Below are positions 9,303 to 10,665 of a stretch of DNA of 12,747 nucleotides, piece after piece. The stretch's first letter is position 1. Each line of letters begins with the position of its first letter. The DNA is from Escherichia coli (GTDB taxonomy: Bacteria > Pseudomonadota > Gammaproteobacteria > Enterobacterales > Enterobacteriaceae). The position numbers were made by a program, and so were the translations under genes. The notes beneath the pieces are model-generated. The model had not been told where the DNA came from, ran no database searches, and saw only the letters and a program-made list of their open reading frames with translations. The DNA lies in NCBI RefSeq assembly GCF_003334255.1, contig NZ_QOWU01000081.1. One strand, written 5' to 3'.

Positions 9303-9342
9303 TGCTCTTTAACAATCTGGGTATTCCTAACCACAAAGGAAT
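9303..9342 (+). promoter_or_regulatory. rrn-type boxA (TGCTCTTTAACAA) followed by a stem-loop: candidate nut-like or Nus-factor-dependent antitermination site in the early-left transcript
   Basis: Exact 13-nt match to the rrn boxA consensus as I recall it, at 9303-9315; hairpin ATTCC-(10 nt)-GGAAT at 9323-9342, 7 nt downstream; about 400 nt downstream of the PL-like promoter. No N-like protein identified. Confidence 0.4.
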
Positions 9343-9773
9343 CGCATCAATTTGGATTTTGCAGACAGTTTCTCTTGTTGTTCTACGGAGATTCCTATTT
9401 TGATCTGGGTTTTTAAGATTGCGATATCTTTAAGCGACGACCAAATATTATCATCTGTTTTTTCCAGGAGCTTTAACTGCATTTTCAATTCCGAATCGGA
9501 ATATTTTTCTGCATCATCATAAAACTGCAGATATTCTGCGGATTTTCTCATTGCGTTACCTGACTTTTGTCCGAATCCGTAAATCGTTTGAACGGTTGCT
9601 ATCACAACAATGAGAACTCCAGAAACTTCAGGAATAAATCCACCAATGACAGATGAACCGAGGATAATACTCACCACTGAGAAAAGTTTATCGAGACGAC
9701 CAGTCGCTACAGAGAATAGTTGTTCAAGAAAATAACCATATAAAACCCTGTCAAGAATATCATCCCGGTCCAT
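9327..9773 (-). CDS. Two-transmembrane-helix membrane protein, 148 aa, putative superinfection-exclusion protein (SieB-like by position and topology)
   Basis: ATG 9771-9773 preceded by AGGTGA. Hydrophobic segments LFSVVSIILGSSVIGGFIP and VSGVLIVVIATVQTIYGF followed by a helical charged domain. Transcribed opposite to the early-left operon, as sieB is in Rac. The gene looks AT-rich relative to its neighbours. Confidence 0.5.
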   Translation of the reverse strand: MDRDDILDRVLYGYFLEQLFSVATGRLDKLFSVVSIILGSSVIGGFIPEVSGVLIVVIATVQTIYGFGQKSGNAMRKSAEYLQFYDDAEKYSDSELKMQLKLLEKTDDNIWSSLKDIAILKTQIKIGISVEQQEKLSAKSKLMRFLCG

Positions 9774-10021: not shown

Positions 10022-10236
10022 CGTGGTTAAAAGCAGGCACACAACACGAAAGCGCACGGCGAGATTCCTTTGCATATAAGGCTTGTCGTTAAATTTCTTC
10101 GACCGTGCACTTCCGGTTGTGGCAGTCCGCGAAATGGCGCGGCGGTAAGTATGGCTGGGGCTTCCTCCATTGCTCCAGAAAATGCACCGGGTCGTCAGGT
10201 TGACCATACGCTTAAGTGACAGCCCCGCCACAATAC

Positions 10237-10294
10237 CCATGTGTAGTATTTGGTGGCATCAGTTCTACTCCGTGACTGCTCTGCCACCCTTTTT
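10237..10294 (+). ncRNA. dicF: DicF-like small RNA (cell-division inhibitory sRNA of the dicB operon)
   Basis: TTTGGTGGCATCAGTTCTACTCCGTGACTGCTCTGCCACCC followed by TTTTT matches my recollection of E. coli DicF (TTTGGCGGTATCAGTTTTACTCCGTGACTGCTCTGCCGCCC) with 4 substitutions, two of them compensatory in the terminator stem (GGTGGCA/TGCCACC at 10252-10258 and 10282-10288). The 5'-most ~12 nt differ. Immediately upstream of dicB. Confidence 0.8.
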
Positions 10295-10297
10295 AAA

Positions 10298-10459
10298 GTG
10301 AATTTTGTGATGCGGTGAATGCGGCTATGCGCACGCGGAACAGTTAAAACCGTAAAGTGGTCTTTTACGGGGCGTAACGGGCATCCTTCTGTATTCCGGC
10401 GTTAATTGTTAACTGGTTAACGTCACCTGGAGGCACCAGGCACCGCATCACAAAATTCA
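10298..10459 (+). repeat. 19-bp perfect inverted repeat (10298-10316 and 10441-10459) enclosing 124 bp between dicF and dicB; likely a long-range RNA stem serving as a processing site
   Basis: TGAATTTTGTGATGCGGTG ... CACCGCATCACAAAATTCA. An internal hairpin CCGTAAA-GTGGTCT-TTTACGG lies at about 10350-10370. Confidence 0.7.
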
Positions 10460-10476
10460 TTGTTGAGGACGCGATA

Positions 10477-10665
10477 ATGGAAACGTTATTACCAAACGTT
10501 AATACGTCTGAAGGTTGTTTTGATATTGGTGTTCTGCTCAGTAACCGGGAGTTTACGGAAGATGCCATTAAGATGAGAAAATATGAACCTTATCTTCTCA
10601 ATGATAATTCCATACTTTCCAGAATTGCCCTTCTTGAACTTGGTATTATCGGAGAACAGCAGTGA
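10477..10665 (+). CDS. dicB: DicB-like cell-division inhibitor (MinC-activating), 62 aa
   Basis: N-terminus METLLPNVNTSEGCFDIGVLLSNREFTEDAI matches my recollection of Qin DicB (MKTLLPNVNTSEGCFEIGV...FTEDAI). GAGGA ribosome-binding site at 7-nt spacing. Follows dicF. Confidence 0.85.
   Translation: METLLPNVNTSEGCFDIGVLLSNREFTEDAIKMRKYEPYLLNDNSILSRIALLELGIIGEQQ

Follow-up and report, generated by a model that had tools for sequence, protein, structure and literature searches.

The window, by which we mean the whole 12,747-nucleotide stretch of Escherichia coli DNA analysed here, contains a dicBF-type operon, in which the small RNA DicF is followed by dicB on one strand, within an early-left operon downstream of a repressor gene. 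The 501 bases around the inverted repeat described below are 100% identical to a locus of E. coli G1/2, a lambdoid prophage adjoining ompW with the gene order racR-like repressor, DUF1391 gene, reverse-strand ORF, dicF, dicB, DUF1482 gene, exonuclease, xis and int. Sequence related to this region is carried by 4,634 of the 5,426 complete E. coli genomes, with a median of two loci each. The features that bound the region of interest are:

10238-10289, + strand: DicF sRNA with its terminator hairpin (Rfam RF00039, 62 bits), followed by a U-run at 10290-10294 (TTTTT, read directly)
10465-10469, + strand: dicB Shine-Dalgarno sequence GAGGA (read from the sequence)
10477-10665, + strand: dicB coding sequence, 62 aa (ORF list; RefSeq dicB in the identical G1/2 locus; PHROG 1251, E = 2e-40)

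The DicF match covers model positions 1-52 and stands against a gathering score of 48; together with sok it is the only match in the window when Rfam is scanned at the gathering threshold. The sok antisense RNA of a hok/sok-type toxin-antitoxin pair lies at 3373-3548 on the minus strand (RF01794, 120.5 bits), with hokD alongside in the identical G1/2 locus. Between the DUF1391 gene and dicF, a 148-aa ORF (9327-9773, minus strand), hypothetical in G1/2, occupies the place where K-12 has ydfB and ydfC on the plus strand. DicF itself is of mixed resemblance: its 3' half is K-12-like, and at 10238-10260 the first ~14 nt (CAUGUGUAGUAUUU) are unlike K-12 DicF (UUUCUGGUGACGUU) and resemble the start of the Rac sRNA KilS (GUGUGUAGUCCU). 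The 5' region of the window DicF, and with it the pairing partners, may differ from those of K-12 DicF.

A long inverted repeat between dicF and dicB

The repeat finder and direct reading of the sequence place the left arm, TGAATTTTGTGATGCGGTG, at 10299-10317 and the right arm, CACCGCATCACAAAATTCA, at 10441-10459. The arms are 19 nt each, 100% complementary and separated by 123 nt, and G10298·U10460 could add a twentieth, G·U, pair. This 19-bp perfect repeat had been recognised in the earlier note, whose right arm, and whose distance of 17 nt (10460-10476) from the end of the stem to the dicB ATG at 10477, agree with ours; its left arm, placed at 10298-10316, was one base off, and the 124 bp that it gave for the enclosed segment should be 123. 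The repeat is the longest perfect one (loop up to 300 nt) across the 12.7-kb window, and in 200 dinucleotide-preserving shuffles the longest repeat was mostly of 10-11 nt and never exceeded 15, which rules out a chance origin.

In the transcript, the minimum-free-energy fold of 10230-10480, proposed in the earlier note as a check, retains the full stem (z = -4.15), as does that of 10299-10459 (z = -5.13). The stem lies directly 3' of DicF, as the same note had observed, beginning 4 nt past the U-run of the DicF terminator. At its other end it stops 5 nt short of the dicB Shine-Dalgarno sequence and leaves it uncovered; hence, any effect on dicB, which had been suggested as a control of translation, would have to act via the structure of the leader or the stability of the mRNA, and not by occlusion of the ribosome-binding site. 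The bases flanking the arms are AAAG upstream and TTGT downstream, with no flanking duplication. With 19 Watson-Crick pairs and G10298·U10460, the stem has the length of an RNase III substrate, i.e., largely uninterrupted double-stranded RNA of ~20 bp or about two helical turns.

The stem closes a conserved structured RNA

The interior of the repeat, in which the earlier note had seen a further internal hairpin, is instead predicted to form at least four helices. Comparison with homologues indicates that the stem forms helix P1 within a ~160-nt RNA of conserved structure, predicted here for the first time, with the following parts:

10299-10317, + strand: P1 5' arm (repeat finder, folds and covariation; G10298 a possible G·U partner)
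10320-10333, + strand: candidate P2 hairpin, UGCG, 6-nt loop, CGCA (4 of 4 pairs invariant in 80 distinct sequences, loop varying)
10337-10397, + strand: variable domain, closed by GGAA (10337-10340) with UUCC (10394-10397)
10341-10347, + strand: single-stranded CAGUUAA in the variable domain
10350-10370 and 10371-10397, + strand: variable hairpins of the window allele
10398-10424, + strand: P4 hairpin, 10-bp stem and nearly invariant loop GUUAACU (99.5% of cells paired; both-side changes in 7 of 10 pairs)
10426-10440, + strand: P5 hairpin CCUGG-AGGCA-CCAGG (99.8% of cells paired; aligns to the STnc100 consensus hairpin)
10441-10459, + strand: P1 3' arm (repeat finder, direct reading and covariation)

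The homologues came from phage genomes, a pattern scan of viral contigs and a pattern scan of one genome per species; the alignment holds 81 sequences, 80 of them distinct, and the structure scored on it was written from the window fold. Across the 80 distinct homologues, 95.6% of the cells of the whole structure are paired, as against 31-41% after displacement of the 3' partners by 1-3 columns, and both sides change in 26 of its 49 pairs; the observed pairing values are reached by 0 of 500 shuffles. For P1 alone, 94.6% of cells are paired and 13 of the 20 pairs change on both sides. Individual homologues illustrate how this comes about. K-12 Qin has the same 19-bp stem in the same place with two wobbles (C-G to U·G and G-C to G·U), which pair in plus-strand RNA and not in DNA or minus-strand RNA, and thus fit only the plus strand. 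The Klebsiella phage ST405-OXA48phi1.2 (L009:1484-1653) has a perfect 21-bp P1, AACAGACCTTGCAATGCAGTG with CACTGCATTGCAAGGTCTGTT, the outer half of which has no sequence similarity to the E. coli arms, and Citrobacter copies of P1 change G-C to A-U and A-U to G-C. The closing stem is kept in the minimum-free-energy fold of all the homologues that were folded (10 of 10), with a long helix in lambdoid and Klebsiella settings and a shorter one in phage D6 (8 bp) and Enterobacter (6 + 6 bp). Taken together, these substitutions show the predicted helix P1 to be selected as RNA on the plus strand.

The support for selection comes from the distant homologues, since polymorphism among close E. coli relatives is roughly neutral: there, single-base variants of P1 preserve and break pairs in roughly equal numbers, and A·C mismatches and a 1-nt bulge are as frequent as G·U pairs. 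At least one mismatch is present in 17 of 32 P1 haplotypes, and such natural variants imply that a perfect duplex is not strictly required. Folding energy did not yield a call of the strand, as the minus strand of the window allele folds about equally well (z = -6.3); the plus-strand assignment is derived from the G·U pairs in the homologues and in P4, and from the direction of the operon.

Within the interior, P4 has three conserved G·U or U·G pairs, with a fourth conserved G·U in the independent prediction by RNAalifold, and P5 changes U-A to G-C in seven sequences; RNAalifold also independently finds the inner 9 bp of P1 along with P4 and P5. The helix closing the variable domain changes on both sides in 3 of its 4 pairs, with only 76% of cells paired, and the sequence that it encloses differs in both length and sequence among alleles. 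P2, with invariant pairs and no covariation, is a weakly supported candidate helix, and RNAalifold places a slightly different small hairpin there.

Several further observations concern this interior. The single-stranded CAGUUAA (10341-10347) is complementary to UUAACUG of the P4 loop (10409-10415), both almost invariant, and a pseudoknot is possible; the two A-to-G changes seen in the loop (in POCJ13 and an Enterobacter copy) would form U·G pairs, not mismatches, in it. P5 contains an invariant Shine-Dalgarno-like GGAGG ~44 nt ahead of the dicB ATG, and no start codon is suitably spaced from it. On the minus strand, 10350-10370 forms a terminator-like hairpin followed by TTTTAAC, which falls within the variable part, is absent from K-12 and is probably incidental. 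Pairing of the variable region with the dicB ribosome-binding site seemed possible by eye in several alleles, at positions that are not conserved. A coding function was rejected: the element is crossed by a single ORF, a frame of 67 aa on the minus strand (10365-10568), and the idea is further disfavoured by the compensatory changes and by frame-breaking indels in the variable region.

One RNA ahead of different phage genes

The element was recovered ~130 times, always in one orientation and shortly before a small gene of a phage operon, at a distance of 17-35 nt. In most copies this gene is dicB. In Rac-type and Stx-type phages (Rac-SA53, POCJ13 and K-12 Rac) it is kilR/kil, and in the P1-like phages P7 (L006) and D6 (L005) it is the TerB-like tciA, the element lying in the ban operon between the tRNA genes and tciA; elsewhere a small membrane protein or further short ORFs follow. 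The corresponding PHROG families are DicB 1251, Kil 294 and tellurite resistance 632. The same predicted RNA is thus found ahead of dicB, kilR and the tciA of P1-like phages in different phages, an arrangement that is reported here for the first time. In the lambdoid contexts it is preceded by a DicF-like terminator, and in K-12 Rac the upstream RNA is the annotated sRNA KilS.

The length of helix P1 varies with these contexts. The lambdoid copies of E. coli and Citrobacter, together with one Klebsiella phage, have 19-21 bp, a second Klebsiella lineage ~17 bp with bulges, the P1-like phages only 8-9 bp and the Enterobacter copy 6 + 6 bp. The 17-21 bp of the lambdoid and Klebsiella copies, set against the 8-9 bp of the P1-like phages, exceed the length needed for closing the fold; conversely, the short or interrupted P1 of the P1-like phages and Enterobacter implies that the core RNA works without an RNase III-grade stem.

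Three contigs depart from the general organisation. The metagenome-assembled contig SFFP01000141.1 (L139), labelled Ruminococcus and almost certainly E. coli contamination, is a fold-back chimera whose junction coincides exactly with the inverted repeat, and in two viral contigs (L057 and L070) the left half of the element is swapped for unrelated sequence.

A divergent relative of STnc100

In a scan with an E-value threshold, 10301-10454 matches RF02076 (STnc100) with 36.5 bits and E ~1e-6 over model positions 21-154 of 206, a score that lies below the gathering threshold of 47 bits. The cmscan alignment brings three helices into register with STnc100, namely the closing stem, a hairpin resembling P4 and the hairpin GGAGGCACC, and these shared helices are the ones also backed by covariation in this subfamily. 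A Citrobacter braakii homologue (L134) from the same alignment and the same context scores 49.7 bits, above the threshold, over the full model. On this basis the element appears to be distantly related to STnc100, as a divergent member scoring below the cut-off, a relationship that is new here.

STnc100 is a multi-copy prophage sRNA of Salmonella and EHEC, related to PasD and overlapping EcOnc27; its copies are transcribed abundantly in EHEC (PMC5331693), it has no known function, and one copy is located 75 nt after stx2B (PMC12370729). The element shares with it a long-range closing stem ending GGUG...CACC, a P4-aligned hairpin and, directly ahead of the 3' arm, the hairpin CCNGGAGGCACCNGG, as well as a prophage-borne, intergenic location. 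It differs in the closing stem, which is of 8 bp in the Rfam consensus and 19-20 in the window, and in that the described copies of STnc100 lie in late regions, not after DicF. None of the STnc100 papers drawn on here mentions the dicF-dicB or kilR copies, and in the searchable literature we found no prior link of P1 to STnc100, no account of the dicB/kilR/tciA modularity and no proposal that the outer half of the stem is an addition. The sub-threshold match to STnc100 suggests that genome annotation misses this subfamily.

RNase III and the read-through transcript

An RNase III site that maps by size into the dicF-dicB repeat has been known from K-12 since 1990, and the window carries another allele of it. 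The main, 53-nt form of DicF acquires its 3' end by Rho-independent termination and its 5' end by RNase E. For the K-12 dicBF operon, two later papers citing the original study state that cutting by RNase III yields a 72-nt DicF, the RNase III-dependent 3' end of which lies 19 nt past that of the 53-nt form (Faubladier et al., 1990, cited in PMC5069750 and PMC9438474). From the 5' end of K-12 DicF, which has the annotated coordinates 1649382-1649434, a count of 72 nt leads to 1649453; this is L003:1054 in our K-12 sequence, the tenth nucleotide of the left arm (L003:1045-1063), and corresponds to window position 10308, a mapping that rests on reported sizes and may be off by 1-2 nt. RNase III cuts leave 2-nt 3' overhangs, and in vivo the two positions between them are paired and mostly contain one G-C pair or more (PMC6212723). 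The pairs between the two cuts predicted in the window, G10307-C10451 and U10308-A10450, fit this rule for a cut position that is itself inferred. The same position is the boundary between the lambdoid-specific outer 10 bp of P1 and the inner 9 bp shared with the P1-like phages, and the kil-type alleles have their 1-nt bulge of P1 there. In an independent survey, Gordon et al. (2017; Table S1) list a dicF-dicB site at 1649470, marked 'Known: Yes', with 26 reads in the rnc mutant and 0 reads in both wild-type replicates; with this low count, the site falls 8 nt inside the element and outside the arm.

The papers citing the 1990 study differ in their account of what was cut: one describes a 5' cut and a 190-nt form (PMC10448788), the others a 3' cut and the 72-nt form (PMC5069750, PMC9438474). 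In the former, a study of the operon from 2023, the 190-nt DicF precursor is RNase III-dependent with its 5' end upstream, and only this upstream site is stressed. The window has an irregular hairpin at ~10047-10115 on the plus strand, aligning with K-12 L003:781-851, a hairpin in whose right arm the 190-nt precursor of K-12 has its 5' end (PMC10448788). With this hairpin on one side and the stem on the other, DicF is flanked by two RNase III-type structures, and given suitable structures on either side both accounts may be right.

The best explanation of the stem, which we hold to be quite likely, is that helix P1 of the read-through transcript closes the ~160-nt RNA and is cut about half-way along by RNase III. 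More specifically, once transcription of the early-left (dicBF) operon has passed the DicF terminator, 10299-10317 would pair with 10441-10459, and P1, of 20 bp with G10298·U10460, would close the conserved structured RNA. RNase III would then cut P1 after 10308 (10308/10309) and after 10451 (10451/10452). The cut in the left arm would form the 3' end of the longer, ~72-nt DicF; that in the right arm would separate the dicB-ydfD message from the upstream RNA, so that it would start ~25 nt before the ATG, with a 25-nt leader bearing a 5' monophosphate. Between them, the two cuts would excise a ~143-nt core still closed by the inner 9 bp of P1. The interpretation offered in the earlier note, that of an RNase III substrate releasing DicF, is thus supported in its essentials by its agreement with the K-12 Qin experiments, and had already been described for K-12; the release would concern only the 72-nt read-through DicF and not the main 53-nt form.

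A different emphasis would make P1 mainly the closing helix of an STnc100-like RNA with a function of its own, either as a cis-acting leader tuning the translation or stability of a toxic gene or as a stable, Hfq-associated, trans-acting sRNA, with cutting by RNase III secondary or incidental. The RF02076 match sharing P1, P4 and P5, the Citrobacter homologue above the gathering score and the abundance of STnc100 copies in EHEC all speak in its favour, as do a core that is nearly invariant from lambdoid to P1-like phages, with covarying P4 and P5, its constant place 17-35 nt ahead of a small gene (dicB, kilR, tciA/TerB-like or membrane protein), and the retention of just 8-9 bp of P1 in P1-like phages. 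It leaves unexplained, however, the 17-21 bp duplex of the lambdoid and Klebsiella copies, which is maintained even where the sequence is unrelated; STnc100 offers no known function on which to build, and our computations indicate no ligand, protein partner or target. We consider it unlikely that this is the main role of the helix, and it is in any case compatible with, and not exclusive of, processing by RNase III.

Readings in which the stem acts on transcription or as DNA fare worse. A second terminator, an attenuator or a Rho barrier would be in keeping with a position directly after an intrinsic terminator, in an operon whose distal genes need read-through; yet the right arm is followed by UUGUUGAGGA, which has no U-run, the terminator scan has no plus-strand match here, and arms 123 nt apart do not have the geometry of a terminator, leaving such a role very improbable. 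A Rho-independent terminator in particular was rejected on the first two of these points, the terminator being the DicF hairpin upstream. Perfect 19-bp repeats around a 123-bp segment, with different neighbouring genes in different phages, could also recall the ends of a miniature transposable element, a site of cruciform formation or recombination, or a palindromic operator bound by protein, and the fold-back metagenome contig, the two contigs with a replaced left half and the comparable folding of the minus strand of the window allele might be read in the same way. Against this, G·U wobbles, which plus-strand RNA alone can pair, are common among the variants; P4 has three to four conserved G·U pairs; the interior changes in the compensatory manner typical of RNA; orientation and operon position, just upstream of a start codon, are constant; and the P1-like phages keep the interior without the outer arms. 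We regard a DNA-level element as extremely improbable, and a miniature inverted-repeat transposable element was rejected outright, given ~130 copies in one orientation, RNA-type variation of the arms and the lack of a flanking duplication.

Implications for the control of division inhibitors

DicF and DicB are both toxic and block cell division, and what determines the balance between them, as products of one operon, is a matter of current work (PMC10448788). Under the preferred account of RNase III cutting within P1, the stem is the point at which the sRNA and protein-coding parts of read-through transcripts are separated, as is established for K-12. A conserved, covarying fold that also lies ahead of kilR in Rac and of tciA in P1-like phages provides, in addition, a testable handle on the STnc100-type RNAs.

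We further propose, as a tentative reading that we hold to be possible rather than probable, that the repeat is a composite of a native inner closing helix and an outer RNase III add-on that excises the core from read-through transcripts. The inner part, 10309-10317 with 10441-10449 (9 bp), would close a universal STnc100-like core of ~143 nt, placed by lambdoid and P1-like phages directly ahead of genes for host takeover or division inhibition (dicB, kilR, tciA), and the outer part, 10299-10308 with 10450-10459 (10 bp), would belong to the lambdoid early-left operons and make the excision precise. The reported end of the 72-nt DicF falls exactly at the boundary of the two parts. If it is correct, the dicB, kilR and tciA contexts would share a previously unrecognised class of phage leader, or released RNA, gating toxic division inhibitors.

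Comparison with known systems

The closest counterpart is the dicBF region of K-12 Qin, which presents the same succession of DicF terminator, AAAG, 19-bp arm, ~110-123 nt, complementary arm and 17 nt to the dicB ATG. It differs from the window in having G·U pairs at two arm positions where the window stem is perfect, in the variable insert, which in the window is of other sequence and 13 nt longer, in the 5' end of DicF, and in DicB, the C-terminal half of which is divergent in the window. The KilS-kilR region of Rac follows a parallel plan, with the sRNA KilS (1418405-1418502) ending at a DicF-like terminator, then the element, then a division-inhibitor gene. In this case, the downstream gene is the FtsZ inhibitor kilR and not dicB, and the 3' arm, interrupted by a 1-nt bulge and including a U·G pair, ends 22 nt ahead of the start codon.

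Phage transcripts offer well-known precedents for the use of a duplex cut by the host RNase III to set the ends or fate of RNAs, as in the retroregulation of int by sib/tI of phage lambda and at the sites in the early mRNA of T7, the substrates in both being simple hairpins. The element resembles these in that its duplex would be formed only in read-through or polycistronic transcripts and would be cut by RNase III. It has no sequence relationship to them, and in place of a simple hairpin its arms stand 123 nt apart around a conserved multi-helix RNA.
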